In this document: piece by piece, positions 1 through 30,749 of the stretch | Layout of the letters: the number at the start of each line of letters is the position of its first letter | Numbering within the stretch: the stretch's first letter is position 1 | DNA from: Nitrospirota bacterium | GTDB lineage: Bacteria; Nitrospirota; UBA9217 | NCBI GenBank assembly: GCA_037916085.1 | Contig: JBAIYC010000081.1 | Span: 1 to 34,832, forward strand | Length of the DNA stretch: 34,832 bases | Reading direction: 5' to 3' | Made by a program: the position numbers and the translations under genes | Notes under the pieces: model-generated | The model's database searches: none | Told to the model about the DNA's origin: nothing | What the model saw: the letters and a program-made list of their open reading frames with translations, nothing else

Positions 1-309
1 GTCTTCGGAGTGTTGCCGAGCTTTGTCCCCATCGAAGACCTGTCAAAGCATTGGGGCAAGAAAGTGCATCAGTTCAACCATGATCTCCATGCGCCGACCG
101 GCTGGGGGTGGTTGTCGCTCATCAGCAAGGGCGACTATCTGAACTTTGTCGGCATCGCCATGCTGGCCGGTTTGACGATCGTCTGCTATCTCGCGATCCT
201 TCCGTCGCTGCTCAGGAAAAAGGACATGCCCTACGTGATCATCGGGATCGTCGAGGTCCTCGTGCTCACCCTGGCTGCAAGCGGCATCCTGAGGGGTGGG
301 GGACACTAG
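1..309 (+). CDS. C-terminal fragment of an integral membrane protein (5' end lies outside the window); family not recognised
   Basis: Frame +1 is open from base 1 to TAG 307-309. It has two hydrophobic helices (NFVGIAMLAGLTIVCYLAILPSLL and YVIIGIVEVLVLTLAASGIL). A hairpin terminator follows at 348-382. Confidence 0.5.
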   Translation, partial: VFGVLPSFVPIEDLSKHWGKKVHQFNHDLHAPTGWGWLSLISKGDYLNFVGIAMLAGLTIVCYLAILPSLLRKKDMPYVIIGIVEVLVLTLAASGILRGGGH

Positions 310-347
310 GACAGCGTACCAACAGCACCGGATCGATGCTCTTCTAC

Positions 348-382
348 GGGCGGCCGAAAAGCCGCCCGTTTCCTTTTCTTGT
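348..382 (+). terminator. Intrinsic terminator
   Basis: GGGCGGC (348-354), loop CGAAAA, GCCGCCC (361-367), then the T-rich run GTTTCCTTTTCTTGT. Confidence 0.7.
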
Positions 383-435
383 GTTCGCATACCGTTGCAT
401 TCTTCATCGCAAAGGTCCTTTGGGCACATTTTTTC

Positions 436-465
436 TTGACCTTGGGCGGCGGGAAGGAGTATACA
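436..465 (+). promoter_or_regulatory. Candidate sigma-70 promoter for the SulP gene
   Basis: TTGACC (436-441), 18 nt spacer, TATACA (460-465), about 45 nt upstream of ATG 510. Confidence 0.3.
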
Positions 466-509
466 TTCTGTCGTTTGCATTTCTATCCTACGTAGCAAGG
501 AACTTGACC

Positions 510-2240
510 ATGCCTGAATCGAAGCTCGAACCAAAGCTGCTTACCGTGATCCGCGAGGGCTATTCCGGGGAAATATTCTTTAAGGACCTCACCGCCGGCA
601 TCATCGTCGGTATCGTTGCGCTCCCTCTTGCCATCGCCTTCGCGATCGCGTCGGGTGTGACTCCCGAGCAGGGTCTCTACACGGCCATCGTTGCGGGGGT
701 CCTTATCTCTCTCTTGAGCGGGAGCAGGGTGCAGATCGGCGGACCCACCGGCGCATTCATCGTCATCATCTACGGCATTGTGCAGAAGTACGGCTACGAC
801 GGCCTTGTGGTGGCGACCATCCTGTCCGGGATCCTGCTCATCATCATGGGCGTGGCCAAGATGGGATCGGTGATCAAGTACATTCCCTATCCGGTCACCG
901 TGGGATTCACTGCGGGCATCGCGCTTATCATCGCGACAGGACAGATCCGCGACTTCCTCGGTCTGCAGATGGACAAGGTCCCCGCCGAGTTCGTGGAGAA
1001 GGTCGAAGCGTTCGTGGAGCATGCCGGAACAATCAGCCCGACAGCGGCGGCAATCGGCATTCTGACCCTCGTGATCGTGGTGCTGTGGCCGCGGGTGACC
1101 CGCCGCATACCGGGTTCGCTCGTAGCGATCATCGTGACGACGGCGATCGTCTCGATCTTTAAATTGCCGGTCGAGACCATCGGAAGCAGGTTCGGCGCCG
1201 TTTCGAGCACGCCGCCGACTCTGCATATGCCACACATAGACTGGTCGAAGATCCGGTACATGATCTCGCCGGCCATATCGATCGCGCTGCTTGCCGGCAT
1301 CGAATCGTTGCTCTCGGCTGTGGTCGCGGACGGTATGACTGGCCGCAGACATCGATCGAACATGGAACTGGTGGCTCAAGGTGTTGCGAATGTCGCATCG
1401 CCGTTCTTTGGCGGGATTCCTGCAACGGGGGCCATCGCCCGGACGGCCACGAACATCAAGAACGGGGCGCTCACGCCGGTCGCGGGGATCATTCATGCGG
1501 TCGTGCTCCTGCTCATCATGCTCTTCTTCGGCAAATGGGCTGCACTCATTCCCATGGCGACGCTCGCCGGCATCCTGATCGTTGTTTCCTACAACATGAG
1601 CGAGTACCACCTGTTCATCAAGATGTTCAAGAGCCCGAAAAGCGACATCGCGGTACTGATCGCGACGTTCCTGCTGACCGTGCTCGTCGACCTCACCGTA
1701 GCCATCCAGGCCGGAATCGTCCTGGCTGCGCTCCTCTTCATGAAGCGCATGGCGGATGTGACGCAGGTGGGCTATATCACGTCCATGATGGAGGACGAGG
1801 AGGACACGTCTGACCAGGATCCAAACGCCATCAAACGTTTCACGGTGCCGAAGGGTGTCGAGGTCTTCGAGGTCAACGGGCCCTTCTTCTTCGGTGCGGC
1901 CGACCGCTTCAAGCATGTGCTCTCGCTCATCGTGCAGAAGCCGAAAGTGCTGGTCCTCAGGATGCGGCCGGTGCTGTCGATGGATGCCACGGCCCTGCGT
2001 GCGCTCGAAGATGTCTATGAACAGACCCGGAAGGACGGAGCGGTCCTCATCCTGGCGGGCGTTCATACGCAGCCCATGATCACCATGGACAAGGCTGGCT
2101 TCTTGGACAAGATCGGCGTGGACAATGTGTTCGAGAACGTTTGTGACGCGCTCAGAAGGGCCAGGGAGATCGTGGGTGCCAAGCCGGTGCTTCGAGAATC
2201 GCAGATCCAGGAAGTCGGCTGGGAACAGGCAGACCGGTAG
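510..2240 (+). CDS. SulP-family anion (sulfate/bicarbonate-type) permease with C-terminal STAS domain
   Basis: ATG 510 lies in the 108..2240 frame; the upstream part of that ORF overlaps the previous gene and its terminator. SulP hallmarks are LTAGIIVGIVALPLAIAFAIASGV and GGPTGAFIVI, with many TM helices. The C-terminal block VEVFEVNGPFFFGAADRF...VLVLRMRPVLSMDATALRALEDV is STAS-like. Confidence 0.9.
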   Translation: MPESKLEPKLLTVIREGYSGEIFFKDLTAGIIVGIVALPLAIAFAIASGVTPEQGLYTAIVAGVLISLLSGSRVQIGGPTGAFIVIIYGIVQKYGYDGLVVATILSGILLIIMGVAKMGSVIKYIPYPVTVGFTAGIALIIATGQIRDFLGLQMDKVPAEFVEKVEAFVEHAGTISPTAAAIGILTLVIVVLWPRVTRRIPGSLVAIIVTTAIVSIFKLPVETIGSRFGAVSSTPPTLHMPHIDWSKIRYMISPAISIALLAGIESLLSAVVADGMTGRRHRSNMELVAQGVANVASPFFGGIPATGAIARTATNIKNGALTPVAGIIHAVVLLLIMLFFGKWAALIPMATLAGILIVVSYNMSEYHLFIKMFKSPKSDIAVLIATFLLTVLVDLTVAIQAGIVLAALLFMKRMADVTQVGYITSMMEDEEDTSDQDPNAIKRFTVPKGVEVFEVNGPFFFGAADRFKHVLSLIVQKPKVLVLRMRPVLSMDATALRALEDVYEQTRKDGAVLILAGVHTQPMITMDKAGFLDKIGVDNVFENVCDALRRAREIVGAKPVLRESQIQEVGWEQADR

Positions 2241-2283: not shown

Positions 2284-2313
2284 TTGACTCACGCAAGCTC
2301 CTTGTAGTACATT
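2284..2313 (+). promoter_or_regulatory. Candidate sigma-70 promoter for the hydrogenase-like operon
   Basis: TTGACT (2284-2289), 18 nt spacer, TACATT (2308-2313). It would give a leader of about 180 nt before ATG 2500. Confidence 0.35.
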
Positions 2314-2499: not shown

Positions 2500-4545
2500 A
2501 TGACAATCTCGCCGCTGCACATAGTCTCACTGTCATTCTTTGTCCTGTTCGCACTTCTCCTGATAACCCCGCTTCTCCGCCTGAACCAGAAACTCCTCGT
2601 AACGACCGGCTTTTCGCTCTTGGCCCTTGCTTCCCTTGGCGCGGTAATCGGGGGTGCGCTTGCGGTCGCCACGGGGACTGTCGAGACGTTTGTTCTCTCC
2701 GCAGGGCTTCCCGATCTGCCGTTCCATTTGCGGCTCGATCTCCTGTCCGGCTACTTTCTCGTCGTTGTCGGCCTCCTCGCCTTTTTCGTTTCTATCTATT
2801 CTATCGGCTACGTCCGGGGCTTCCTGGGACACCGGCCGGTAACAAGCCTGGTCGTATTCTATACGCTCTTTCTGGCGGGCATGCTCCTGGTGATCCTCGC
2901 TGACGATGCCTTCTTCTTTCTCATCGCTTGGGAGATGATGGCGGCTTCATCCTATTTTCTGGTGATGTTCGAAGATGAACGCATCGAGAACCGAAGGGCC
3001 GCTTTTCTGTACCTGGTGGTGGCTCACGTCGGCGCCATTGCCATCCTCCTGTCCTTCGGCGTCATGGCCGGCCTTGCCACGGGGTTCACAGGGTTCCAGA
3101 GCTATACCTTTGACGCGATGCGCGAGACGGAACTGCCGGCGGGGCTGGCGACCTTGGCTTTCCTCCTCGCGTTCTTCGGGTTCGCGGCAAAGGCGGGCGT
3201 GATCCCGCTCCATATCTGGCTGCCCGAGGCCCACCCTGTCGCTCCGTCGAACATATCCGCGCTCATGAGCGGCGTTATGCTCAAGACGGCGATCTACGGT
3301 ATCGTCCGCGTCGTCTTCGACCTGATCGGGGACTTTCCCTGGTGGTGGGGAGCCCTTGTGCTCGTCTTCGGCCTTGTATCGGCGGTCATGGGCGTTCTTT
3401 ACGCTCTCATGCAGCATGATCTCAAGCGGCTCCTTGCCTATCATTCCGTGGAGAATATCGGCATCATCCTGATCGGCATCGGGCTGTCCATGATCTTCCT
3501 GTCCTTCAACATGCAACTGCTAGCCGCGCTGGCCCTGATCGCGGGTCTCTATCACACGCTGAACCACGCGATGTTCAAGGGCCTGCTCTTCATGGGGGCA
3601 GGGGCAGTGCTCCATGCGACGCATGAGCGGAACATGGAGGAAATGGGCGGACTGATCCGCTTCATGCCCTGGACGTCTGTGCTGTTCCTCGTTGGTTGCA
3701 TCTCGATCTCAGCGCTACCGCCCTTCAATGGTTTCGTCTCGGAATGGCTGACATACCAGGCGTTCCTGCTCTCGCCCTCGCTTCCCAGCCCGCTGCTGAA
3801 CCTGCTCATCCCGCTCGGCGCGGCGCTCCTGGCGCTGACGAGCGCTCTTGCCGCGGCCTGCTTCGTAAAGGCCTTCGGCGTTACCTTCCTGGGCCATCAG
3901 CGGGGCCACCGGCATGGGCAGGTGCGGGAGGCAGGTTGGTCCATGCGCATCGGCATGTTGCTCGCTGCGCTCACCTGCCTGGGGCTCGGCGTCCTCCCGA
4001 CGCTCATGATACGCTGGATGGACCCTCTCGCCGAGGACCTGGTCGGAGGGTCGATCGGATCATCGGCGTCGGGGCTCGGATGGATGTGGCTCACTCCCAT
4101 CGCGGCCGAACGGGCGTCGTATGCGGCGCCGATCGCCTTTGTCGTGATCTTGGGGGTGGTGATGATCACCTACATCCTTCTGCACGCGAAGCCGGGCGCG
4201 ATCAGCCGCGTACCCCTCTGGGACTGCGGTTTCGAAAAGGTGACCAGCCGGATGCAGTATACGGCCACCTCATTTGCCATGCCGCTCCGAAGGATATTCG
4301 GGTTCCTTTTCAGCATCAAAGAGCATGTAAAGAGATTTGGAGCGAGCGCCCACCCGGCCTTCCCGGACCGCCTGCAGTATCATCTCCGGGTGCGGGACCG
4401 CTTCTGGATGTGGCTCTATCAGCCGGTCGTGGACGCGAGCTTCTGGCTTTCGCGCAGGATCGGCAGGATGCAGCAAGGGAAGATCCAGGTCTATCTCATC
4501 TATTCGTTCGTGACGATCCTGGTTTTGCTGATATTCTCTCAATGA
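2500..4545 (+). CDS. HyfB/NuoL-like antiporter-type membrane subunit of an Ehr/group-4-hydrogenase-like complex
   Basis: 681 aa and polytopic. NuoL/HyfB-type blocks are AWEMMAASSYFLV, LPEAHPVAPSNISALMSGVMLKTAIYG, KRLLAYHSVENIG and HTLNHAMFKGLLFMGAG. The strong SD GGGAGGGAAGAGA abuts the ATG. Confidence 0.9.
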   Translation: MTISPLHIVSLSFFVLFALLLITPLLRLNQKLLVTTGFSLLALASLGAVIGGALAVATGTVETFVLSAGLPDLPFHLRLDLLSGYFLVVVGLLAFFVSIYSIGYVRGFLGHRPVTSLVVFYTLFLAGMLLVILADDAFFFLIAWEMMAASSYFLVMFEDERIENRRAAFLYLVVAHVGAIAILLSFGVMAGLATGFTGFQSYTFDAMRETELPAGLATLAFLLAFFGFAAKAGVIPLHIWLPEAHPVAPSNISALMSGVMLKTAIYGIVRVVFDLIGDFPWWWGALVLVFGLVSAVMGVLYALMQHDLKRLLAYHSVENIGIILIGIGLSMIFLSFNMQLLAALALIAGLYHTLNHAMFKGLLFMGAGAVLHATHERNMEEMGGLIRFMPWTSVLFLVGCISISALPPFNGFVSEWLTYQAFLLSPSLPSPLLNLLIPLGAALLALTSALAAACFVKAFGVTFLGHQRGHRHGQVREAGWSMRIGMLLAALTCLGLGVLPTLMIRWMDPLAEDLVGGSIGSSASGLGWMWLTPIAAERASYAAPIAFVVILGVVMITYILLHAKPGAISRVPLWDCGFEKVTSRMQYTATSFAMPLRRIFGFLFSIKEHVKRFGASAHPAFPDRLQYHLRVRDRFWMWLYQPVVDASFWLSRRIGRMQQGKIQVYLIYSFVTILVLLIFSQ

Positions 4546-4566
4546 CATTGGAAACTCAAATGTCAT
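4542..4566. repeat. 8-bp perfect inverted repeat at the hyfB-like stop codon
   Basis: ATGACATT (4542-4549), 9 nt, AATGTCAT (4559-4566). It contains the TGACATTG motif that recurs at 4663-4670 and 9603-9610 (minus sense). Confidence 0.6.
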
Positions 4567-4675
4567 AATCCCGAAAGGTATATCCGGCAGCCCATGACCG
4601 AATACGGTACAACGACGCTCTTTGGTTCTTGGGTTATGATATGAACGTTGGACCCCGTCATGTGACATTGTTGTC

Positions 4676-5632
4676 GTGGAGCATGCGTTGATCGCCTATC
4701 CATACTTCATAGAGCTCCTTCAGGTCACGGCGCTGCTCGTCATGGCCCCGCTCTTTTCCGGCTGGGTCAAGATGGTGAAGTGCTGGTTCCAGGGGAGAAG
4801 TGCCCCGAGCATCCTGCAGCCGTGGCGCGACATCCTGAAACTCTTCTCCAAGGACGTGACCCTGGCTGAGAACGCCTCGTGGATATTCCGTTTCACGCCC
4901 TACCTGGTCTTCGGTGTGTCGGTCCTGGCGGGAGGAATCGTTCCGATCCTATCGATGGACCTGCCGCTGTCGGCGTCCGCCGATGTCATTGCGCTGGTTG
5001 CACTCTTCGCTATTGCCCGGTTCTTCACGGCGCTAGCCGGTATGGACATCGGGACCGCGTTCGGAGGCATGGGATCGAGCCGCGAGATGACGATCGCGTC
5101 GCTCGCCGAACCTGCCATGCTCATGGCGGTCTTTGCCGTATCCCTCGTAGCCAAGTCCACATCACTATCTCAGATGGCCCTGATCATATCCCAGGGGCAC
5201 TCGTTGCTCCGGCCCTCGCTGGTCTTCGCGCTTCTGGCCTTTGTCCTTATTGCACTGGCCGAGACGGGAAGGGTCCCGGTGGACAATCCTGCGACGCATC
5301 TGGAACTCACAATGATCCATGAGGCCATGGTCCTGGAGTATTCGGGCCGGCATCTCGCGCTCGTCGAATGGGCAAAGATGATGAAGCTGTTTCTCTTCGT
5401 GGCGCTCGGCATCGCCTCGTTCTTTCCCTGGGGGATCGCTTCGGGGGCCGGCCTTGTCGATGCTCTGGCGTCCGTTCCCCTTCTGGTCCTCAAGCTCGCA
5501 ATCACCGGTGTGGGGCTGGTTCTCGTCGAGACCGGGCTGGCAAAGATGCGGATTTTCCGGGTGACGGAGTTCCTGGGGTCGGCGTTCCTCTTCGCCACCC
5601 TCGGCATGCTGTCGTATTTCATGCTGGAATGA
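4676..5632 (+). CDS. HyfC/HycD/NuoH-like membrane subunit
   Basis: APLFSGWVKMVKCWFQGRSAPSILQPWRDILKLF and LAETGRVPVDNPATHLELTMIHEAMVLEYSG are NuoH/HycD signatures. A GTG start is assumed (TTG 4688 is an alternative) and there is no clear SD. Confidence 0.85.
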   Translation: MEHALIAYPYFIELLQVTALLVMAPLFSGWVKMVKCWFQGRSAPSILQPWRDILKLFSKDVTLAENASWIFRFTPYLVFGVSVLAGGIVPILSMDLPLSASADVIALVALFAIARFFTALAGMDIGTAFGGMGSSREMTIASLAEPAMLMAVFAVSLVAKSTSLSQMALIISQGHSLLRPSLVFALLAFVLIALAETGRVPVDNPATHLELTMIHEAMVLEYSGRHLALVEWAKMMKLFLFVALGIASFFPWGIASGAGLVDALASVPLLVLKLAITGVGLVLVETGLAKMRIFRVTEFLGSAFLFATLGMLSYFMLE

Positions 5633-5764
5633 ATTGGATGGCGGAATCGGGATCGCGAAGCAGGGGACGAAGATCTTCATGACCCTACGAGCGGAATCCG
5701 TGGGGGTTCTTTTGAATCACGTCGTCCCGAATCATGCCCGGGATAAGGAAGGAACGAGGGGCCG

Positions 5765-6430
5765 ATGAACATCCATCTTGCAACGCAGCTCAACAGCCTT
5801 CTTGCCTCATTGATCCTGCTGACGGCCTTTGCCTTGCTGGTGCAGCGCAGGATGAACGCTTTGCTCCATCTCTTCGCGTGGCAAGGACTCCTGCTTGCGG
5901 TGAGCACGGCGATCGTGGGATATCTGGGCGGCGCGCACGATCTCTATATATCGTCGATCCTGACGCTGACGATCAAGGTCGTCCTTCTTCCGTACATTCT
6001 GCACAAACTCATCGTTCAGCTGAAGATCCACAAGGAGATCGAGAGCGTCGTGAACGTGCCCGCGACCATGCTGATGGGCATCGTCCTGGTGATTTTCTCC
6101 TATCATCTGACAGCCCCGATCCGGGAGCTCTCGACTCTGGTGACCCGTTCGACCCTCGCTGTGGCCCTAGCAACGGTCATGCTCGGGTTCCTCATGATGA
6201 TCACGCGCAAACACGCGGTTACGCAGATCATCGGGTTCCTTGCGATGGAGAACGGCCTCCTCTTCGCGGCGACGAGCGCGACCTACGGCATGCCGCTCGT
6301 GGTCGAGCTGGGTGTTGCGCTGGACCTCCTGATAGCGGCCTTTATCTTCGGCATGTTCTTTTTCCACATCAGGACGACCTTCGACAGTCTTGACGTGGAC
6401 CAGATGGCGAGGCTGAAGGAAGAGGATTGA
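5765..6430 (+). CDS. HyfE-like small polytopic membrane subunit (NuoK-related)
   Basis: 221 aa and all hydrophobic helices. The motif GFLAMENGLLF is NuoK/HyfE-like. Size and operon position match HyfE, and the SD GGAAGGAACGAGGGG lies upstream. Confidence 0.8.
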   Translation: MNIHLATQLNSLLASLILLTAFALLVQRRMNALLHLFAWQGLLLAVSTAIVGYLGGAHDLYISSILTLTIKVVLLPYILHKLIVQLKIHKEIESVVNVPATMLMGIVLVIFSYHLTAPIRELSTLVTRSTLAVALATVMLGFLMMITRKHAVTQIIGFLAMENGLLFAATSATYGMPLVVELGVALDLLIAAFIFGMFFFHIRTTFDSLDVDQMARLKEED

Positions 6431-6551
6431 CGCGTGTCCGGGGAGGGCGAAAGTGACAAAGACAAACGAGCAGAGTTCAAACCGGTGCGTGTCGTTTGAT
6501 TTGAACGTTGACAGTGAACTTCATTCGTTAAGGCGGTCTTGAGGAGCCGGC

Positions 6552-8000
6552 ATGTCCCTTCTCATTCTCCTGATCGTACCGCTTGTCGCGTCCCTGGCCC
6601 TTGCTTTCATCGGCGACCGCAAGCTTGCTCCCGAGGTGAACATCCTCGGCTCTGCTGCCACGTTTGCCGCAAGCGTGCAACTCGCCCTCTACGTCTACGA
6701 GGAGGGCCCGATCCTGACCGGCGGCAACTTCTTCTACATCGACGCATTCAGCGTCTATCTGACGGTCCTCACCTCCTTCGTATCCATGACCACGTCGATC
6801 TTCAGCAGGCGTTACATGCGGCGCGAGCGAGAACACGGCACGGTTGGCCACCGCAGGATGCGCTTCTACCACTCGATGTTCCAGCTCTTCATCTTTGCGA
6901 TGCTGCTCTGCCTGCTCACGAACAACGTGGGGATCCTCTGGATATCCATGGAACTTGCCACGCTGTCCACCGTCCTGCTTGTGTCGCTCTACCGAACGCC
7001 AGCGGCCATCGAGGCCGCCTGGAAGTACTTCATCCTCTGCGGCGTCGGCATCGCTCTGGCGCTCTTCGGCACGGTGCTTCTCTACTTTGCCGCGGAGAAG
7101 GTTCTGGGGGCGGGAGGAGCGGCCCTCCACTGGACGAACCTGAGCAAGGTGAGCGATCAGCTGGAGCCCACGATCCTGTCGCTTGCCTTTGTGTTCCTAG
7201 TGGTAGGGTACGGGACGAAGGTCGGCCTCGTGCCCATCCATAACTGGCTTCCCGACGCGCACAGCGAGGGGCCGACCCCCATTTCGGCCGTTCTCTCGGG
7301 ACTGCTCCTGAACATCGCGCTCTATGCGCTCGTACGCTGTAAGGTGCTGGTCGACGGATCGACGGGCAACCATCATTCTGGAAATATCATGATGGGCTTC
7401 GGCATCATCTCCATCATGGTCGCGTCATTTTCCCTGCTCCGCCAGAAGGACATCAAGCGCATGTTCGCCTATTCCTCGATCGAACATATGGGCATCGCGA
7501 CGTTCGCCTTCGGTCTGGGGGGCCCGGTGGCAACCTTTGGCGCGCTGCTGCACATGCTTGTGCACAGTCTGACGAAGTCGTCCATCTTCTTTACGGTCGG
7601 CCATGCGGCACAGATGCACCGGACGCAGGAGATGGACCGCATCAAGGGACTCATCCGCGGGAACCCGCTCGTCGGATGGGGGATGGCGCTCGGCGTCATG
7701 GCGATCGTGGGAATGCCGCCGTTCGGCGTCTTTGCCAGCGAGTTCCTGATCCTGACTGCGGCTATCAAGGACGCTCCGCTTCTTGCGCCCTTCCTGCTCT
7801 TGGGCCTCGGGGTGTCCTTTGCAGCCTTGTTCCGCAGGGTCCAACCCATGGTATCGGGGCATGTTCCGCCGCACCAGAAGGGGCTCAGGGCGTCCCATGT
7901 GCCGGTGATCTTGCATATGCTCGTGGTCCTGATCCTCGGTCTGTACATGCCCAAATTCCTCTCTGGATGGTTCCAGACAACGGTAGGAGTATTGAAGTAG
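6552..8000 (+). CDS. HyfF/NuoN(M)-like antiporter-type membrane subunit
   Basis: WLPDAHSEGPTPISAVLSGLLLNIALYA, KRMFAYSSIEHMG and HSLTKSSIFF are present, and the SD GAGGAG lies upstream. Confidence 0.9.
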   Translation: MSLLILLIVPLVASLALAFIGDRKLAPEVNILGSAATFAASVQLALYVYEEGPILTGGNFFYIDAFSVYLTVLTSFVSMTTSIFSRRYMRREREHGTVGHRRMRFYHSMFQLFIFAMLLCLLTNNVGILWISMELATLSTVLLVSLYRTPAAIEAAWKYFILCGVGIALALFGTVLLYFAAEKVLGAGGAALHWTNLSKVSDQLEPTILSLAFVFLVVGYGTKVGLVPIHNWLPDAHSEGPTPISAVLSGLLLNIALYALVRCKVLVDGSTGNHHSGNIMMGFGIISIMVASFSLLRQKDIKRMFAYSSIEHMGIATFAFGLGGPVATFGALLHMLVHSLTKSSIFFTVGHAAQMHRTQEMDRIKGLIRGNPLVGWGMALGVMAIVGMPPFGVFASEFLILTAAIKDAPLLAPFLLLGLGVSFAALFRRVQPMVSGHVPPHQKGLRASHVPVILHMLVVLILGLYMPKFLSGWFQTTVGVLK

Positions 8001-8030
8001 GACAGAAACAATGTATACGAAGAATATCCT

Positions 8031-9602
8031 ATGAGCCGACTGAAGCAGGTCATAGAAACCACCTTCGGTCCTGACGCAAAGCACGATGCGGGCCAGCAGC
8101 CATCGGACGTGGTAGCCTTTCTTGTGCCGAGGGCCAGGTTTGCCGAAGCGGCGAAGGCGCTCAAGAAGGAATACGCGCTGCTTGCCGCTGAATGGGCTTC
8201 CGATGAAACGCCTTTCGGGAGGGGCTTCGGTATCTATGCCTGTTTCCGGAAGGAAAGCGAATATCTCATCGTCAAGACCATCGTTCCTCTCGACGATCCT
8301 ACCTTTCCGAGCCTGACGAAGAAATTCGTTCCCGCATTCCGCTTCGAGAGGCAGATGCAGAGCCTCATGGGGGTGACGGCCAACGGCCATCCGGACTCAC
8401 GGCCGTGGATCAAGCACGAGGATTGGCCGGCGGAAGCGTGGCCGCTCAGGAAGGCATTTTCTGCGTCGCAGAGACTGCCGCGAGTGGCAGGCGAATACCG
8501 CTGGGTCCGGGCGGACGGGGAGGGAATCTATGAGATCCCGGTTGGGCCGGTGCACGCAGGGATCATCGAACCGGGCCATTTCCGTTTCCAGGCAATGGGC
8601 GAAGATATCATCAATTTGGAAGAGAAGCTGGGGTATGTCCACAAGGGCATCGAAAAACGGTTCGAGTCCATGACCTGGCAGGATGCTGCCCGTCTAGCAG
8701 CTCGTGTTTCCGGCGACACGACCGTCGCTCACAGTCTTGCTTATGCGAGGGCAGTCGAGTCGCTCACGGGGTGCATCGTCCCGGAGCGGGCGCATTGGCT
8801 GCGCGCGCTGTTCCTGGAGCGGGAGCGTATCGCGAACCACCTGGGAGATCTCGGCGCGATCTGCAACGATGTTGCGTTTGCGTTCCTTCTCTATCAGCTG
8901 CACAGGCTGAAGGAGGACGTCCTGCGCACCAACCAGAGGCTTTTCGGCCACCGCTTCCTGATGGACCGGGTCGTGCCGGGCGGCGTGACCGCGGACATCG
9001 ATGCCGAAGGCACCAGTGCGATCCTTGCCGAGCTCGAGATGATTGAGCGCGAGTTCGCCCGCCTCGTGCTGATCTACGACGAGAATGCTTCGGTTGAGGA
9101 CCGGGTACGCGATACCGGCATCCTGTCGTCTGGCAAGGCCCGGGACCTCGGGGTCGTGGGGTTCGTCGCGCGGGCCAGCGGACTGAACCTCGATTGCCGC
9201 ATCCAGCATCCGTTCCCGCCCTATGATCGCATCGCGGTAACGATCCCCGTGCTGGTGAGCGGTGACGCCCATGCACGCGCATGGATCAGGATCGAAGAGG
9301 TTCGCGATTCCATCCGCATCATCCAGGAGATCCTGCGGACGCTTCCCCAAGGGGCGGTCTCGGTGCTGCCGGGTCCGCCAACTGCGGACAGGGCTGGATT
9401 CGGCGCGGTCGAAGGGTGGCGCGGGGAGATCATCACCTGGGTACAGTCCGGACCGAAGGGGGAGATCAATCGCTGCATGGTCCGGGACCCCTCGAGCGTG
9501 AACTGGCTGGGTCTCGAGCAATGCATCTTCGGGAACATCGTTCCAGACTTTCCGCTCTGCAACAAGAGCTTCAACCAGTCGTACTCGGGAAATGATTTGT
9601 GA
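8031..9602 (+). CDS. Fused NuoC-NuoD / HycE-HyfG-like 'large subunit' lacking the [NiFe] cysteine ligands (Ehr-type)
   Basis: The N-terminal ~150 aa are NuoC-like. The blocks EIPVGPVHAGIIEPGHFRF and EEKLGYVHKGIEK are typical of group-4 large subunits. The L1 site reads ARVSGDTTVAH instead of RxCGxCxxxH. The L2 site reads VPDFPLCNKSFNQS instead of DPCxxC. Confidence 0.85.
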   Translation: MSRLKQVIETTFGPDAKHDAGQQPSDVVAFLVPRARFAEAAKALKKEYALLAAEWASDETPFGRGFGIYACFRKESEYLIVKTIVPLDDPTFPSLTKKFVPAFRFERQMQSLMGVTANGHPDSRPWIKHEDWPAEAWPLRKAFSASQRLPRVAGEYRWVRADGEGIYEIPVGPVHAGIIEPGHFRFQAMGEDIINLEEKLGYVHKGIEKRFESMTWQDAARLAARVSGDTTVAHSLAYARAVESLTGCIVPERAHWLRALFLERERIANHLGDLGAICNDVAFAFLLYQLHRLKEDVLRTNQRLFGHRFLMDRVVPGGVTADIDAEGTSAILAELEMIEREFARLVLIYDENASVEDRVRDTGILSSGKARDLGVVGFVARASGLNLDCRIQHPFPPYDRIAVTIPVLVSGDAHARAWIRIEEVRDSIRIIQEILRTLPQGAVSVLPGPPTADRAGFGAVEGWRGEIITWVQSGPKGEINRCMVRDPSSVNWLGLEQCIFGNIVPDFPLCNKSFNQSYSGNDL

Positions 9603-9724
9603 CAATGTCAAAGAAGAAAGCCCGCATGTCGACTCATGCAACGAGAGGCAAAGGCCAGGATCGACATTGCATTTGCGCTTTGCGTCGGCAGATGTTTCTT
9701 GAACAGTAAGTTCCTGGTGATCCC

Positions 9725-10231
9725 ATGATACGCATCCTAAAACAGATATTCCGCACCGGCGTTGTGACGGAGCCTTTGCCGCCGGTCACAGACCCGGAGA
9801 TCGAGAAGATCGGCGTGCAGCTCGAGGAGGCCATCCAGCGCCGCTTCCGACGCAGCCTGACCATCCGTCAGGTGGATTCCGGTTCGTGCAACGGCTGCGA
9901 GCTTGAGATCCATGCGATGAACAACGTCTATTACAACTGCGAGCGCTTCGGTATCCATTTCACGGCCTCGCCGCGCTTCGCCGACATGCTGCTCGTGACC
10001 GGACCCGTCTCCCATAACATGGAGATCGCCCTTCGGAGGACCTACAATGCGACTCCATCGCCCAAGATCGTGGTCGCAGTCGGCGATTGCGGGTGCAATG
10101 GAGGGATCTTCGGCGAAAGCTATGCGTCTTTGGGAGGCATCGGCCGAGTCATCCCCGTGAACGCGGTCATCCCGGGATGTCCTCCGACGCCGACAGCATT
10201 GCTTCAGGGCATCCTGAAAGCCCTTGGATAG
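9725..10231 (+). CDS. NuoB/HycG/HyfI-like small subunit with intact [4Fe-4S] ligands
   Basis: DSGSCNGCELEI, VGDCGCNGGIFG and IPGCPPTP supply the four conserved cluster cysteines of the NuoB/group-4 small subunit family. Confidence 0.9.
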   Translation: MIRILKQIFRTGVVTEPLPPVTDPEIEKIGVQLEEAIQRRFRRSLTIRQVDSGSCNGCELEIHAMNNVYYNCERFGIHFTASPRFADMLLVTGPVSHNMEIALRRTYNATPSPKIVVAVGDCGCNGGIFGESYASLGGIGRVIPVNAVIPGCPPTPTALLQGILKALG

Positions 10232-11401: not shown

Positions 11402-12346
11402 ATGAGGTCATCATCAGTAACGATACGACAGACCGTCAGGCGATATAATTCCTTCGGCCAGTTCATGAAGGAGCGTTTCGGCCTGCCGGTGTATAAGGTG
11501 AATGTGGACGCCGGTTTCACCTGTCCGAACCGGGACGGAACGATTTCCATTGGCGGGTGCATCTACTGCAACAACGACAGCTTTCGCCCCAGCGTCTGCA
11601 GCAGCACGGTGCCGCTGGGCGAGCAGATTGGGAAGGGAATTCCCTATCTCCGTCGCAGGTACGGGGCGGAGAGGTTCGTTGTCTATTTTCAGCCCTTTAC
11701 GAACACCTATGCTCCGGTAGAGACGCTGGAACGGCTGTACCGTGAGGCACTGGCCCATCCAGGCGTCGTCGGCCTCGCGATCGGGACGAGGCCTGATTGC
11801 GTCGATGAGGAGAAGATAAGGCTTCTCGAGGACCTTGCTCGGGATCGTTTCATCCTTGTGGAGTACGGCCTCCAGTCCATTTACGACCGGACGCTTCAGT
11901 TCATTAACCGGGGGCATGATTATGCACGCTTCCGCGAGGCCGTCGAGATGACCGCAGGGCGCGGCATTCACATCGGAGCTCATTTGATCCTCGGGTTCCC
12001 GACGGAAACCCGCGACGAAATGCTTGACATGGCCGATGCAGTCATGCGCATGCCTATCGGGTTCCTGAAGCTCCATCAGCTCCAGGTGATACGAAACACC
12101 GCACTCGCCGACCTGTTTGCGGTCAAGCCCTTTCCCACCCTGGGATATCAGGACTATATCGGGCTGGTGGCTGATTTCCTGGAGCGGCTGTCTCCCGACG
12201 TTGTCATCCAGCGCCTTTTTGCAGCTGCGCCGGCGGACATCCTGATCGCTCCGGTCTGGGACCGCACACGAAGCGAGTTCCTGAACGATCTTGATGCGTT
12301 TCTGGAGCGAAACGATAGCTATCAGGGCAAGAAGAACAGGCGATAA
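11402..12346 (+). CDS. TIGR01212-family (YhcC/YtqA-like) radical SAM protein
   Basis: GLPVYKVNVDAGFTCPNRDGTISIGGCIYCNNDSF is the characteristic N-terminal cluster region. The start is ambiguous: ATG 11402 is preferred because the -10 element at 11361-11366 would put the TSS near 11373, with GTG 11375 as the alternative. Confidence 0.85.
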   Translation: MRSSSVTIRQTVRRYNSFGQFMKERFGLPVYKVNVDAGFTCPNRDGTISIGGCIYCNNDSFRPSVCSSTVPLGEQIGKGIPYLRRRYGAERFVVYFQPFTNTYAPVETLERLYREALAHPGVVGLAIGTRPDCVDEEKIRLLEDLARDRFILVEYGLQSIYDRTLQFINRGHDYARFREAVEMTAGRGIHIGAHLILGFPTETRDEMLDMADAVMRMPIGFLKLHQLQVIRNTALADLFAVKPFPTLGYQDYIGLVADFLERLSPDVVIQRLFAAAPADILIAPVWDRTRSEFLNDLDAFLERNDSYQGKKNRR

Positions 12347-12418
12347 CACGGCGGATAAGCGATAGCTGGCCGCCGTGCGGCGCATTCATCGAGCAACAAA
12401 CCTAGGAAGGACCTTTTC

Positions 12419-13078
12419 ATGATCGATCTCCACACGCATTCATTGTTCAGCGACGGCGTCCTCGTCCCGTCGGAGTTGGTCCGGCGAGCGGTGATAAAGG
12501 GCTATGAGGTCATCGCGATCACCGACCATGCCGATGCGTCGAACCTCGATTTCATCATCCCCAGGGTGACGGCGGCATGCCGGGAGCTGGGCAAACGTTG
12601 GAAGATCCGGGCGCTGCCGGGCATCGAACTGACCCACATCCCGCCCGATACCTTCGGGGAATTGACCCGCAAAGCCCGGTCGCTGGGAGCAGCGATCGTC
12701 GTGGCCCACGGGGAGACCATCGTAGAACCGGTTCATCCTGGCACGAACCGCGCCGCCATCAATGCCGGCATTGACATCCTGGCCCACCCGGGGTTGATCA
12801 CGAAAGCGGAGGCGGCGCTTGCTGCAAAGAAAGGTGTCTTCCTCGAGATAACAACGAGGAAGGGCCACAGCTTGTCCAACGGTCATGTTGCGAAGATGGC
12901 AGAAGCGGCGGGGGCGCGGCTCGTGATCGATACGGACACGCACGAGCCGGGGGACCTTGTTTCCGACGAAGAGGCGCGGAACGTGTTGGTGGGGGCCGGG
13001 CTCGGCGCGAAAGAGGCAGACCGGGTATTCAGGAACTCGCGAGAACTTGCGGAAAGGGCCCTCAAGAGATTCGCATGA
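12419..13078 (+). CDS. PHP-domain (histidinol-phosphatase-like) metal-dependent phosphoesterase
   Basis: MIDLHTHSLFSDG..., AITDHAD, VVAHGE, ILAHPG and IDTDTH are PHP metal-binding His/Asp blocks. The SD AGGAAGGA lies upstream. Confidence 0.85.
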   Translation: MIDLHTHSLFSDGVLVPSELVRRAVIKGYEVIAITDHADASNLDFIIPRVTAACRELGKRWKIRALPGIELTHIPPDTFGELTRKARSLGAAIVVAHGETIVEPVHPGTNRAAINAGIDILAHPGLITKAEAALAAKKGVFLEITTRKGHSLSNGHVAKMAEAAGARLVIDTDTHEPGDLVSDEEARNVLVGAGLGAKEADRVFRNSRELAERALKRFA

Positions 13079-13123
13079 GGCATTGCCGATGGGAGACGTT
13101 CAACAAGGAGGACAGGGGACGGA

Positions 13124-13840
13124 ATGGCCAAGATCAAGAAGAAGACACCGAAAGCTCAACAGCCTGCTGAAGAGTTCCGGTCTATCGCGCACACGGTCGC
13201 TGATGCATACCGGGCCTATCGTAACCAATTCAATGCTGCACTGACCGTCATCGCCATTGCCGCAGCCGTCATGGTTGTGTACTGGCTCATTTCGGCGAAC
13301 AAGGAAAAGCAGGCAAGCAAGCTGCTTGCAGCGGCATACCAGGCCGCTGAGCCCGGCGCCGCCACGCCGGCGAACAACCTCTTGGCCCTGCAGCGCTTTC
13401 AGGAAGTCGTGAAGCAGTATGGGGGAACGATGAACGGGGCGGTGGCCCAGTTCTCCCTCGGGAACATCTATGCGCAGATGGGGCAATATGGGCAAGCGGT
13501 GCAGGAATACGAGAAGTTCACTAAGGAGTACGGGAAGGAGCAATTCCTTCTGCCCTTTGTGTACCAGCGGATGGGATACGCTTATCTGGCCCTTGGCAAG
13601 CAGGATGACGCCGTGAAGGCCTTTAGTCGGGCCGAGGCGGTCGGCGGTCCTGGACCGGCAACCGTGGAACTCGCGAGGATCTACGACCATGAAGGGAAAT
13701 CAGCAGAGTCCCAGAAGATGTACAAGGAGGTGAGCGAGAAGCTCGCCGCTACGTCGTGGGCTGTGGAGGCGAGGACCAAGCTTCCACCGCCGGACCTGAA
13801 AGCACCAGTGACCATGCCGGCGGGGACCGCTGAAAAGTAG
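13124..13840 (+). CDS. Membrane-anchored tetratricopeptide-repeat protein (YfgM-like topology)
   Basis: It has a basic N-terminus and one TM helix (LTVIAIAAAVMVVYWLI). TPR-like repeats follow (AQFSLGNIYAQMGQYGQAVQEYEKF..., YQRMGYAYLALGKQDDAVKAF). The SD AAGGAGGA lies upstream. Confidence 0.7.
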   Translation: MAKIKKKTPKAQQPAEEFRSIAHTVADAYRAYRNQFNAALTVIAIAAAVMVVYWLISANKEKQASKLLAAAYQAAEPGAATPANNLLALQRFQEVVKQYGGTMNGAVAQFSLGNIYAQMGQYGQAVQEYEKFTKEYGKEQFLLPFVYQRMGYAYLALGKQDDAVKAFSRAEAVGGPGPATVELARIYDHEGKSAESQKMYKEVSEKLAATSWAVEARTKLPPPDLKAPVTMPAGTAEK

Positions 13841-21703: not shown

Positions 21704-22033
21704 CTAGCCCTTGTGGCAGCGTTTGCAATTACTGGCGTCCTTTACGTCAAAGGCCTTCTTCCCGTCGTGACAGCTCCCGCAGAACTTGCCTTTCGTCAGT
21801 GCAGACATGTCCATCTGGTACGCCGCTCCGCCCGTCATCTGAAAGGTCTTATAATGACAATTGTTGCAGCGCTGGCCTTTCAGGTTCACATGATATTCAT
21901 GGTTGAACAGCACCGGCGCCGCGCCCTTGGGCCGGTACTCCTTATCTCCGCCGCCGACCTTGGCAGGAACGGAGAATGGGGCCAGAATGAGGGATCCACT
22001 TGCCACGACCGCGATAAACAAGGCTGTTCGCAT
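21704..22033 (-). CDS. Periplasmic triheme cytochrome c (c7/c3-like), paralogue 3
   Basis: It has a signal peptide and three heme motifs (CNNCH, CGSCH, CKRCH). ATG 22033 is preceded by AAGGAGG. An alternative ATG at 22054 overlaps the upstream stop as ATGA. Confidence 0.85.
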   Translation of the reverse strand: MRTALFIAVVASGSLILAPFSVPAKVGGGDKEYRPKGAAPVLFNHEYHVNLKGQRCNNCHYKTFQMTGGAAYQMDMSALTKGKFCGSCHDGKKAFDVKDASNCKRCHKG

Positions 22034-22050
22034 AAGGAGCCGCCTCCTTG

Positions 22051-22365
22051 TCATTTCTTGTGACACCGCATGCAGTTCTTCGAGGAAGCGAGGTCGAAGG
22101 CCTTCATCCCGTTGTGGCAATGTCCGCAGAAACCGTTCTTGGTAATCTTTTCCTTATGCATTTCATATCCTGCTCCCTTGGCGAATTTCTGAAAGTGGCA
22201 GGCAACGCATTTGAGGCCCCGCACATGCAGGTGGTAATCGTGGCTGAAATGGACCGGCTCGATGTTCTGCGGAGTAAAGACGATATCTCCGCCGCCGGCG
22301 GCCATGGCTGCAGGAAAAGGAAGGAGAACAAGACCCATGACCAGGATCAGGATGGCGTTCCGCAT
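22051..22365 (-). CDS. Periplasmic triheme cytochrome c (c7/c3-like), paralogue 2
   Basis: It has a signal peptide and three heme motifs (CVACH, CGHCH, CMRCH). It is colinear with its neighbours (GGGDI.F.P....PV.FSH..H). Confidence 0.85.
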   Translation of the reverse strand: MRNAILILVMGLVLLPFPAAMAAGGGDIVFTPQNIEPVHFSHDYHLHVRGLKCVACHFQKFAKGAGYEMHKEKITKNGFCGHCHNGMKAFDLASSKNCMRCHKK

Positions 22366-22376
22366 GACTCCTCCGG

Positions 22377-22694
22377 TTACTTATGACATCTCACGCAGTT
22401 GTCCGGAGACTTGACATCGAAGGATTTCTGCCCGTTGTGGCACTTGCCGCAGAAATCGCCCTTGGTCAGCTTCGCCATATCCATCTTGTACGATCCTTGT
22501 GCCATGTGAAAGATCTGGTAATGACAGCCCGTGCACTTGATGCCTTTTCCTTTTACGTGTGCTTCGTGACTGAACGTCACCGGGGCCGCATTCTTCGGCG
22601 TGAATTTGATGTCCCCGCCGCCCACCTTCTCTGCAGAGGCGGCCGCAGACAGAACGAGTACCGATGCGATGATGAATAGAACCATTTTCTTCAT
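22377..22694 (-). CDS. Periplasmic triheme cytochrome c (c7/c3-like), paralogue 1
   Basis: The signal peptide is MKKMVLFIIASVLVLSAAASA. The heme motifs are CTGCH, CGKCH and CVRCH. The SD GGGAGGGAGGA lies upstream. Confidence 0.9.
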   Translation of the reverse strand: MKKMVLFIIASVLVLSAAASAEKVGGGDIKFTPKNAAPVTFSHEAHVKGKGIKCTGCHYQIFHMAQGSYKMDMAKLTKGDFCGKCHNGQKSFDVKSPDNCVRCHK

Positions 22695-22735
22695 TGTTCC
22701 GATCCTCCCTCCCGCATAAGGTCAAATCTGGCGTG

Positions 22736-25147: not shown

Positions 25148-25178
25148 AGCAAGAAGACAGCGGTCAGATAAGAGAGGG

Positions 25179-25208
25179 CTGACAGTCTGAATCCCCGCGG
25201 TGTATGAT
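25179..25208 (+). promoter_or_regulatory. Internal sigma-70 promoter placing the TSS on the rtcB ATG (leaderless candidate)
   Basis: CTGACA (25179-25184), 18 nt spacer, TATGAT (25203-25208), then 6 nt (GTCCCC) to ATG 25215. No SD is present. Confidence 0.4.
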
Positions 25209-25214
25209 GTCCCC

Positions 25215-26645: not shown

Positions 26646-26689
26646 TCGCATCGGGTCGCGCACCGGGATATACGGAGAAGGAGCACGAG

Positions 26690-26723
26690 GAGCGGCAAAG
26701 GTTTTTGCCGCTCTTGGTGTTCC
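26690..26723 (+). terminator. Intrinsic terminator after rtcB
   Basis: GAGCGGCAAA (26690-26699), loop GGTT, TTTGCCGCTC (26704-26713), then TTGGTGTTCC. Confidence 0.6.
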
Positions 26724-26758
26724 TGCGGTCAAAATGAGATGCATGACCGATGAAATGC

Positions 26759-29639: not shown

Positions 29640-30749
29640 ATGAAACTCATCCGCATCAGGGCGATCGCTCAGAAGGAAGCGCTCCAGGTCATCCGCGACC
29701 CGTTCAGCCTGGCCATGGCCTTCATCGTCCCGCTGTTCCTGCTCCTGATCTTCGGGTACGCCATTACCTTGGACATCCGCGAGATCGATACGATCGTGCT
29801 TGATCGTGACGGGAGCAGCCTGAGCCGCGAACTGGCGACCGAGCTCAGGGAAACGGGGTATTTCACCATCAGGAAGTACGTCGAGCGCGAACGGGATATC
29901 GAGAACGAGCTCGATTCGGGAGCGGCAAAGGTGGCCGTCATGATACCGACGGACTTCAGCAAGAAAATCCGTTCCGGTGGGACCCCCAAACTCGGCGTTA
30001 TCATAGACGGCAGCGACGCGAACACGGCAATGATCGCCCAGGGATACCTCACGGGCATCGTAACGCAGTTCTCGTCCCGCTTTGCCACAGCATCTCTCCG
30101 GCTGCCCATCGATGTACGGACCAGAGTCTGGTACAATCCCGATCTCAAATCTCGCAACTTTATCATTCCCGGCCTGATCGCTGTCATCATGGCCGTCATC
30201 GTCGCCCTGCTCACCTCGCTCACCGTGTCCCGGGAATGGGACCGGGGGACGATGGAGCAGCTGATCGCCACGCCCGTCACGAGATACGAGATCATCATCG
30301 GGAAGCTCGTCCCCTACTTCTGCATCGGCCTTGCCGACACGCTGCTCTGCATCGCCATGGGGACGCAGCTTTTCCATGTGCCTCTTCGGGGGAGTCTGCC
30401 GCTGCTCCTTGCGCTGTCGGGGGTATTTCTCGCCGGCGGGCTCTGCATGGGTATTCTGATCTCGATCATCGCACGGCAGCAGCTGCTGTCGAGCCAGATG
30501 GCGCTCCTGGGCACCTTCCTGCCGGCATTCCTGCTCTCGGGCTTCATGTTCTCCATCGCCAGCATGCCGCGTCCGATACAGTACGCGACCTATGCGGTGT
30601 CCGCGCGGTATTTCGTCAATATTATCATGGGGATCTTCCTGAAAGGTGTGACGTTCCGGCTGGTTCTCGTCGAAACGGCGCTGCTGATCGTTTACGGAAT
30701 CCTCATGTTCGGCCTTGCGGGCCGGAAATTCAGGAAACGGGTGGAATAA
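29640..30749 (+). CDS. ABC-2-type transporter permease (YbhS/YbhR-like)
   Basis: N-terminal KEALQVIRDPFSLAMAFIVPLFLLLIFGY is followed by a large extracytoplasmic loop. The C-terminal part is an ABC-2 membrane domain (REWDRGTMEQLIATPV). Confidence 0.9.
   Translation: MKLIRIRAIAQKEALQVIRDPFSLAMAFIVPLFLLLIFGYAITLDIREIDTIVLDRDGSSLSRELATELRETGYFTIRKYVERERDIENELDSGAAKVAVMIPTDFSKKIRSGGTPKLGVIIDGSDANTAMIAQGYLTGIVTQFSSRFATASLRLPIDVRTRVWYNPDLKSRNFIIPGLIAVIMAVIVALLTSLTVSREWDRGTMEQLIATPVTRYEIIIGKLVPYFCIGLADTLLCIAMGTQLFHVPLRGSLPLLLALSGVFLAGGLCMGILISIIARQQLLSSQMALLGTFLPAFLLSGFMFSIASMPRPIQYATYAVSARYFVNIIMGIFLKGVTFRLVLVETALLIVYGILMFGLAGRKFRKRVE

Follow-up and report, generated by a model that had tools for sequence, protein, structure and literature searches.

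A probable energy-converting-hydrogenase-related (Ehr) complex without Ni-Fe cysteine ligands in a Nitrospirota bacterium

The stretch of DNA analyzed here, hereafter the window, comprises 34,832 nucleotides of a Nitrospirota bacterium of lineage UBA9217 (assembly GCA_037916085.1, contig JBAIYC010000081.1, positions 1 to 34,832, forward strand). It carries a six-gene operon (2500-10231) whose fifth gene (8031-9602, forward strand) encodes a 523-amino-acid large subunit, a fused NuoC-like and NuoD/HycE-like protein in which the ligands of a Ni-Fe centre have been lost. The six genes very probably encode an energy-converting-hydrogenase-related (Ehr) complex, descended from energy-converting hydrogenases and built like a group 4f-type membrane hydrogenase. 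This identification is based upon motif alignments with HycE and with cysteine-containing relatives, the modeled fold of the large subunit, gene order across 80 loci, the position of the family in a bootstrapped tree, and the Nitrospira literature, in which Ehr complexes are described as close to group 4f, devoid of CxxC motifs, and of unknown function (PMC10284858, PMC12342949). A previous sequence-only reading of this DNA had named the same class, and the operon content, motif loss, and group 4f proximity observed here agree with those published descriptions. The complex belongs to a known, already described class and adds no new kind of system. With respect to function, a redox-coupled ion-translocating machine is put forward tentatively.

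Pfam analysis of the large subunit identified Complex1_30kDa (PF00329, NuoC-like) at residues 32-147 and Complex1_49kDa (PF00346, NuoD-like) at residues 290-444, consistent with the fused NuoC-NuoD/HycE-type protein proposed in the sequence-only reading, as well as a sub-threshold match to NiFeSe_Hases at residues 206-271 (21.9 bits, cut-off 25.8). The peptides quoted in that reading (EIPVGPVHAGIIEPGHFRF, EEKLGYVHKGIEK, VPDFPLCNKSFNQS, and ARVSGDTTVAH at residues 224-234) are all present in the open reading frame (ORF). In a sequence search against solved structures, the top match was Escherichia coli HycE (7z0s_E, E-value 1.7e-60); MbhL and Nqo4 ranked next. The large subunit is a member of the group-4-hydrogenase/complex-I superfamily.

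Both former Ni-Fe ligand sites could be placed by alignment. At the N-terminal site (RVSGDTTVAH, 8703-8732, forward strand; Ser227, Asp229, Thr230, His234), HycE RVCGICGFAHS aligned without gaps over RVSGDTTVAHS in HMMER, with the two cysteines replaced by Ser227 and Thr230 and His234 kept, exactly as previously read; MbhL RMCGICSFSH likewise aligned with RVSGDTTVAH. The former C-terminal motif, NQSYSGNDL followed by the stop codon, occupies 9573-9602 (forward strand). Here HycE GSLDPCYSCTD aligned over KSFNQSYSGND, placing Ser517 and Gly520 at the ligand positions. Closer cysteine-containing relatives with DFPLINKSFELCYACxDR, aligned as NKSFELCYACxDR against NKSFNQSYSGNDL / DFPLCNKSFNQSYSGNDL, gave the same register. 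The single C-terminal cysteine ligand that the sequence-only reading had counted as remaining must be withdrawn: Cys510 (in 'PLC'), aligned with an isoleucine of HycE, lies seven residues upstream of the first ligand position, and none of the four ligand cysteines, rather than one of four, is left. The absence of a C-terminal extension was correctly noted, the protein ending where mature HycE ends, yet it is undiagnostic because the cysteine-containing relatives also stop right after ...CxDR. Furthermore, where hydrogenases have E(A/S)PRG, the large subunit reads EGWRG in the family alignment (9411-9425, forward strand), with Arg464 kept and the proline replaced by Trp463. All hydrogenase large-subunit models scored far under their cut-offs (NiFeSe_hydrog, 21 bits against 600). 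Serine, threonine, and glycine cannot stand in for the thiolates of a Ni-Fe(CO)(CN)2 site. Lacking every Ni-Fe cysteine ligand, the protein is therefore not a [NiFe] hydrogenase, and the complex can neither make nor consume H2; the earlier conclusion that no Ni-Fe centre can be held stands, now on the loss of all four cysteines.

In order to establish which features are retained among relatives, an ortholog set of 80 loci was drawn from one-genome-per-species assemblies, with large subunits 64-80% identical to that of the window and hosts in Nitrospirota, Nitrospinota, Desulfobacterota, Thermodesulfovibrionales, Geobacteraceae, Desulfuromonadales, and other groups. RVSGD[ST]TVAH was present in 72 of the 81 sequences (window included) and S-G-D in all 81, and (C/I)NKSFNQSYSG(N/H)DL plus the stop codon was close to invariant. 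The most conserved 20-residue blocks were 161-180 (beta1-beta2 loop region), 261-280, and 501-520 (former C-terminal ligand region), the last having a mean conservation of 0.97, equal to that of block 161-180. Pairwise ratios of non-synonymous to synonymous substitution rates (dN/dS) were 0.07-0.13, with dS near saturation. Intact 523-amino-acid ORFs were found in more than 100 relatives, and many proteins from Nitrospirota metagenome-assembled genomes (MAGs) were 76-99% identical to the large subunit; orthologs from Geobacteraceae MAGs were 65-67% identical, with the same gene order. Since 80 independent assemblies share the replaced motifs, chance and assembly error are excluded, and the alignments place no intact CxxC pair at either ligand site. 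The near-invariance of these motifs, together with a dN/dS of about 0.1, shows that the gene is not a pseudogene. The large subunit is under strong purifying selection, centred on the former active site.

An AlphaFold2 model of the large subunit, built on a 92-sequence alignment, had a mean predicted local distance difference test score of 94.2, and only residues 175-179, the loop bearing His38 in Nqo4, were poorly predicted. Superposition on E. coli HycE (7Z0S_E) gave a template modeling (TM) score of 0.95 and a root-mean-square deviation of 2.1 Å at 30% identity. E. coli NuoCD was the second structural match (TM score 0.90), and a Foldseek search of the PDB returned nothing closer than HycE. 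According to the alignments, the remodeled former active site holds a strictly conserved set of five polar or charged residues (Asp229, Trp463, Arg464, Glu180, and Tyr518). Glu180 (IIEPGH), Arg464, and Tyr518 are common to cysteine-less relatives and hydrogenases. Asp229 and Trp463 (E-G-W-R-G) are specific to the cysteine-less group: Asp229 is found in at least 90% of distant cysteine-less relatives, and Trp463 occurs in most of them, the same position being proline in most cysteine-containing sequences (E-x-P-R-G).

The remaining five genes of the operon lie on the forward strand with the large subunit, at intervals of 30-133 bp, and, of the 80 loci, all that span the operon share the order HyfB, HyfC/NuoH, HyfE, HyfF, large subunit, small subunit. 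The first gene (2500-4545, 681 amino acids; Pfam Proton_antipo_M/N) encodes a HyfB/HycC-like, antiporter-like membrane subunit that passed the NCBIfam model 'hydrogenase 4 subunit B' (818 bits, cut-off 667), with HycC as its top PDB match (7z0s_C, E-value 1.6e-70). Its Glu145, Lys231, Lys262, and Glu415 (transmembrane helices 5, 7, 8, and 12) are invariant among orthologs, with the exception of one arginine at Glu145. The second gene (4676-5632, 318 amino acids; Pfam NADHdh) encodes a HyfC/HycD/NuoH-like membrane subunit with the acidic loop motif E..PVD..E..HE..EYSG between transmembrane helices 5 and 6; its top PDB match was HycD (7z0s_D, E-value 2.1e-40) as compared with 3e-7 for NuoH, and NuoH models fell under their cut-offs. 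A HyfE-like membrane subunit with a NuoK-like C-terminal half follows (5765-6430, 221 amino acids; weak Pfam Oxidored_q2 at residues 131-218), which matched NCBIfam 'hydrogenase 4 membrane subunit' under the cut-off (E-value 1.7e-27) and is 75-95% identical among orthologs. The fourth gene (6552-8000, 482 amino acids) encodes a HyfF-like, antiporter-like membrane subunit (NCBIfam 'hydrogenase 4 subunit F', 762 bits, cut-off 543) whose top PDB match was MbsH (E-value 2e-36). In comparison with E. coli NuoM, Glu134, Lys223, and Glu397 correspond to E144, K234, and E407, and Asn254 occupies the position of K265; orthologs show no variation at these four positions, and L081, a cysteine-containing relative, has the same residues (loci are denoted by L numbers). 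The invariant Asn254 in place of the central lysine of transmembrane helix 8 is a side observation, and since L081 has the same asparagine, it is a family trait unlinked to Ni-Fe loss.

The sixth gene (9725-10231, 168 amino acids; Pfam Oxidored_q6) encodes a NuoB/HycG-like small subunit, which lacks a ferredoxin domain and has the four cysteines needed for a single [4Fe-4S] cluster. Its top solved-structure match was HycG of 7Z0S (E-value 1.9e-36). Cys55, Cys58, Cys122, and Cys152 align with the matching cysteines of HycG and MbhJ and are invariant in all orthologs covering them; from the HycG and MbhJ structures, we take their equivalents to be the proximal [4Fe-4S] ligands. The operon consists of these six genes only, with no NuoA, E, F, G, I, or J homologues, and no hyp or endopeptidase genes were found within the window. 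Relatives of the large subunit are publicly annotated as 'Ni,Fe-hydrogenase III large subunit' or 'NADH-quinone oxidoreductase subunit C'. Given such names, and the passing of the hydrogenase 4 subunit B and F models by neighbouring genes, the earlier warning against a hydrogenase-4 or formate hydrogenlyase label was well placed.

A wider view of the family came from searching 50%-identity representatives exhaustively, which yielded 1184 proteins at an E-value of at most 1e-30; of the best 150, 123 were near full length and were surveyed for the ligands. The majority of these 123 are cysteine-less (xxSGDxxxxH and NKSFNLSY(S/A)GxDL), and about 20 keep both CxxC pairs (RxCGxC and NKSFELCYxCxDR). 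In 284 of 300 bootstraps of a neighbour-joining tree of the NuoD-like domain, the whole family was set apart from a Hyf-type sequence and from HycE, MbhL, and Nqo4. The clustering inside Hyc/Hyf clades that would have contradicted an Ehr assignment was not seen, and by this tree the large subunit falls clearly outside the Hyc, Hyf, Mbh, and NuoD clades. Monophyly of the cysteine-containing sequences was recovered in only 26 of 300 bootstraps, and the cysteines may have been lost once or more than once within the family. The cysteine-containing locus L081 (P0127), which apparently derives from a spore-former, shows the six genes in the order found in the window. Its small subunit (240 amino acids) carries a 2x[4Fe-4S] ferredoxin domain at its N terminus, and the small subunit of the window resembles this protein minus that domain.

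A further sample of 80 metagenomic loci, besides the 80 orthologs, revealed that cysteine-less large subunits pair with four kinds of small subunit. Type (a) combines a 2x[4Fe-4S] ferredoxin domain with the proximal cluster. Type (b), of about 290 amino acids, has a degenerate N-terminal ferredoxin-like domain with one C-P and one CxxCxxC, probably enough for one cluster (L097, L101, L103, L109, L139, L146, and L162). Type (c) has the proximal cluster only, as in the window. In type (d), three or all four of the [4Fe-4S] cysteines are lost (e.g. GSSNAEE..GDNAKDGG..PGNPP), the small subunit is always encoded first, and the operons are intact (L085, 1-390; L087, 1371-1916; L089, L090, L096, L111, L124, and L126); these complexes appear, from their motifs, to be without any redox cofactor. 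All four types keep the Asp/Trp/Arg/Glu/Tyr pocket in the large subunit, with tryptophan replaced by asparagine in L087. Judged by sequence, the Fe-S content of the family is graded, at three, two, one, and zero clusters, with a constant pocket.

The functional reading put forward tentatively is that of a redox-coupled ion-translocating machine. A state change at the interface of pocket and cluster would be coupled to movement of H+ or Na+ through the HyfC/HyfE/HyfF/HyfB arm. This change would consist of the one-electron reduction or oxidation of the single [4Fe-4S] cluster by a directly docking low-potential carrier, and protonation of the Asp/Glu/Arg network would accompany it. Several observations are consistent with such a machine. 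The near-invariance of the replaced motifs in 80 orthologs, the conservation maxima at the former active site, and the low dN/dS argue that the complex is still functional, and the invariance of the four cluster cysteines argues that a redox element has been kept. Electron delivery towards the same pocket is suggested by sister cysteine-less clades, which retain one or two extra clusters in an N-terminal ferredoxin-like domain. An ion path appears to be kept: orthologs show almost no variation at the charged residues of the two antiporter-like subunits, which recur in L081, and the NuoH-like subunit retains its HycD-like acidic loop. Published expression data add hints, namely the greater abundance of Geobacter Ehr subunits on formate (PMC7894505) and the acid induction of a Methylocystis operon described below.

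Other results weigh against a redox-coupled machine. A scan of all frames within and next to the operon in 81 loci found no CxxCxxCxxxCP motif, and hence no NuoI/HycF-like gene; with neither such a subunit nor a ferredoxin domain in these loci, there is no obvious electron route to the cluster. No acceptor site can be named, and no recurrent redox partner (formate dehydrogenase, carbon monoxide dehydrogenase, or similar) was found in a survey in which the flanking ORFs of about 170 loci were clustered. The role of the pocket may be electron-free, as cluster-less relatives keep its signature. Finally, expression of the Ehr complex of Nitrospira moscoviensis does not rise with H2 (PMC12342949), which fits a complex that is not a hydrogenase and gives no positive function. 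Types (a) and (b) argue for electrons at the pocket and type (d) for a pocket role independent of them, which is why the redox-coupled machine is held only tentatively and a transporter without redox chemistry is retained as a serious, if less probable, alternative.

This alternative proposes a non-redox ion, or ion/anion-coupled, transporter in which the membrane arm acts as an Mrp-like antiporter or pH/ion-homeostasis device, the peripheral arm as a plug or gate, and the cluster as a structural element or a redox or O2 sensor. It would account for the joint absence of the ferredoxin input domain and the Ni-Fe site, and for the eight relatives whose cluster-less small subunits accompany the conserved pocket (save for the asparagine of L087) and intact operons. 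The genes that recur nearby encode transporters and regulators rather than redox enzymes: besides SulP transporters, a CBS protein and an ArsB/CitMHS-type anion transporter follow the large subunit in L087 and L088, a beta-carbonic anhydrase follows it in L085, and an F-ATP synthase adjoins the cluster-less type. Acid induction is also consistent with a transporter; a Methylocystis operon reported as a 'group 4f [NiFe]-hydrogenase', with a motif ending ...AARVS, was induced at least 16-fold (log2 4.2-4.5) at pH 5 (2026 preprint, bioRxiv 10.1101/2025.08.29.672306). That operon may be a cysteine-less Ehr-type one classed as a hydrogenase by HydDB, AARVS being the residues before G-D in the window. 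A transporter of this kind is harder to reconcile with the invariance of the four cluster cysteines across every ortholog of the window clade, and in many sister clades a wire of one or two clusters to the same pocket persists, which is hard to explain without electron transfer. In addition, the association with SulP is weak, at about 8 of about 170 loci. A more specific proposal, in which the conserved job of the pocket is not redox chemistry and the complex is a redox-gated or redox-independent ion (or ion/anion) machine for pH homeostasis or for inorganic-carbon or anion handling with the adjacent SulP, is considered unlikely. If true, it would represent a new hydrogenase-derived functional class, comparable to the re-use of complex I modules in DAB and Cup systems.

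Less probable still is a complex-I-like ferredoxin:quinone oxidoreductase, or a quinol:ferredoxin oxidoreductase driven by proton-motive force, with a quinone in the remodeled pocket. The encoded subunits (NuoB, C, D, H, K-like, and two antiporter-like ones) do amount to a minimal complex I core, whose cluster is equivalent to N2, NuoCD is the second-best structural match of the large subunit, and the clade occurs in Nitrospirota, Nitrospinota, and Geobacteraceae/Desulfuromonadales. These groups probably rely on ferredoxin-dependent 2-oxoacid oxidoreductases, and quinol:ferredoxin activity, if present, could supply reduced ferredoxin to the reductive tricarboxylic acid cycle in Nitrospira and Nitrospina. 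However, in a gap-free alignment with Nqo4 (2fug_4), the quinone ligands Tyr87 and His38 correspond to Gly228 and Ile179, and all NuoD models fell under their curated cut-offs (NF004739, 216 bits against 360; TIGR01962, 181 against 459). The NuoH-like subunit is nearest to HycD, not NuoH, Trp463 is bulky and may plug the pocket instead of opening it, and NuoA, NuoJ, and NuoI homologues are missing. By these comparisons, the large subunit is not a canonical quinone reductase or complex I NuoD.

Two further explanations can be set aside as extremely improbable. A genuine [NiFe] hydrogenase of the Hyf/formate hydrogenlyase type, with cysteines missing by artefact or with unconventional ligands, is suggested by the public names of relatives and by the hydrogenase 4 models passed by neighbouring genes, and is contradicted by the loss of all four ligand cysteines to the same residues in 80 independent assemblies, by large-subunit model scores far under cut-off, by the lack of maturation (hyp) and endopeptidase genes in the window, and by the inability of serine, threonine, and glycine to replace thiolates. 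Equally, a decaying, pseudogenised relic of a hydrogenase operon would explain the loss of catalytic ligands and input domain and the mobile or defence genes between the HyfE- and HyfF-like genes of four loci, but not the intact ORFs in more than 100 relatives, an operon order kept across phyla, a dN/dS of about 0.1 with conservation peaking exactly at the former active site, or the detection of all subunits as proteins in Geobacter (PMC7894505).

The four operons just mentioned (L013, 5000-8300; L072, 5100-8500; L019; and L066) are split by inserts of about 3.4 kb. Those of L013 and L072 were considered as extra subunits and rejected, as they instead carry genes for MqsR/MqsA-like toxin-antitoxin, nucleotidyltransferase, T5orf172/MUG113, and SDH-type protease proteins. 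In L004, L006, L008, and L010 (Nitrospirota) and in L072 (319-1125) and L076 (205-3941) (Geobacteraceae), a second, paralogous cysteine-less operon immediately precedes the orthologous one, the two forming a tandem; the Geobacteraceae paralog has a small subunit with a 2x[4Fe-4S] ferredoxin domain and a large subunit reading AAGDTT...NLSYCGFDL. Upstream of the operon in the window, a consensus scan of the 260-bp gap before the first gene identified a promoter-like site at 2284-2313 (forward strand; 9 of 12 matches), which is weak evidence given five such sites in the pre-operon region against 2.6 expected from shuffles. A riboswitch or other RNA element was rejected, as Rfam returned nothing at gathering thresholds across the window and only a chance-level match within 2150-2600.

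Recurrent flanking genes in the survey of about 170 loci encode histidine kinases, sigma-54 regulators, ArsR, SulP transporters, ATP synthase, cytochrome c7, and two families without Pfam matches. In the window, a SulP/STAS anion transporter lies directly upstream of the operon (108-2240, forward strand), scoring above the cut-off for the sulP subfamily and below those for DauA and BicA. SulP genes also adjoin the operon in L002, L007, L017, L091, L127, L159, and L162; as an operon partner it was rejected, adjacency being limited to the window, its three closest relatives, and four distant loci, which is too sparse, and is kept as a hint. The SulP, carbonic anhydrase, and anion-transporter neighbours may reflect a link to anion or inorganic-carbon handling, or coincidence. 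Three tandem cytochrome c7-like genes occupy 21704-22725 (reverse strand) of the window, and about 12 other Nitrospirota loci have homologues a short distance downstream of their Ehr small-subunit gene. The two Pfam-less families, both absent from the window, lie 1-2.5 kb downstream of the small subunit in a subset of L001-L035: the first is of about 343 amino acids (24 loci; e.g. L033, approximately 12235-13269) and the second is a membrane protein of about 170 amino acids (16 loci; e.g. L001, approximately 4128-4634). Elsewhere in the window, 31984-34600 (forward strand) encodes a dihaem-type cytochrome c with FixO/cbb3-like domains and a COX1-family haem-copper oxidase subunit, followed at the window edge by ORFs with two CxxCxxCxxxCP motifs (34040 and 34388); this region looks like a terminal-oxidase or nitric oxide reductase-like cluster. 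Long ORFs without Pfam matches were found at 25164-26744 (reverse strand) and 25200-26645 (forward strand), which overlap on the two strands, and at 30715-31959 (forward strand).

The class to which the complex very probably belongs is widespread. The name Ehr was reportedly given to Geobacter sulfurreducens GSU0739-0745 by Coppi in 2005, and the class is said to have been surveyed by Marreiros and colleagues in 2013; in a name-based search for a link to the G. sulfurreducens complex, no match bore the Ehr name. The G. sulfurreducens complex (GSU0739-45) was more abundant on formate (PMC7894505), a pairing of formate dehydrogenase with Ehr has been proposed for Margulisbacteria (PMC6349859), and the Mycobacterium tuberculosis genes Rv0081-0087 are regarded as Ehr, with a complex reported for Rv0082-0087 (PMC6728331). 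Within Nitrospirales, the complex, once called a putative formate hydrogenlyase, is present in 'about half of all genomes' (PMC12342949), and hundreds of metagenomic loci were found here. Routine mis-annotation of Ehr subunits as hydrogenase-3/4 or complex I subunits distorts genome-based predictions of H2 and formate metabolism, and Ehr function matters to bioenergetics and to the evolution of complex I from hydrogenases. The present results offer a cleaner definition of the class, comprising none of four ligand cysteines, the Asp/Trp/Arg/Glu/Tyr pocket, a single cluster in the window clade, and a graded, family-wide loss of Fe-S clusters; graded loss with a constant pocket represents a useful lead for the field.

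Comparison with known systems places the complex of the window closest to the Ehr complexes already described. It shares with them a group-4-like large subunit without Ni-Fe cysteines, antiporter-like, NuoH-like, HyfE-like, and small subunits, proximity to group 4f, and a Nitrospirota host; nothing essential differs, and the window clade represents a variant whose small subunit keeps the proximal cluster only. Group 4f itself ('Ehf', represented by L081 and about 19 other cysteine-containing sequences) is similar in the six-gene order of L081, the motifs PVGPxHAGIIEPGHFRF and DFPLxNKSF, and the lack of a C-terminal extension, and the antiporter-like subunits of L081 are 35-41% identical to those of the window, with the same conserved charged residues. 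It differs in retaining RxCGxC and ELCYxCxDR, in having proline rather than tryptophan in E-x-P-R-G, in lacking Asp229, and in the 2x[4Fe-4S] domain of L081.

More distant systems share fold and subunits to varying extents. E. coli formate hydrogenlyase (HycE/HycG/HycC/HycD, 7Z0S) supplied the top solved match for four subunits of the window, but the large subunits are only 30% identical, and the complex of the window has no Ni-Fe site and no HycF, HycB, or formate dehydrogenase while possessing an additional HyfE-like and a second antiporter-like subunit. The Mbx/Mbs sulfane reductase of Pyrococcus (6U8Y), a membrane-bound respiratory complex, likewise derives from a hydrogenase and has ceased to produce H2. 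Its large subunit is a far weaker match (E-value 1.8e-24, rank about 50), and Mbs is said to contain 13 subunits, among them Mrp modules and a NuoI-like subunit. Complex I is similar in fold (NuoCD, TM score 0.90), in its loss of the Ni-Fe site, in the four cluster cysteine positions of NuoB, and in the charged residues of its antiporter-like subunits. The complex of the window, unlike complex I, has neither the Tyr87/His38 quinone ligands nor NuoA, E, F, G, I, or J, and matches NuoD and NuoH models under cut-off.

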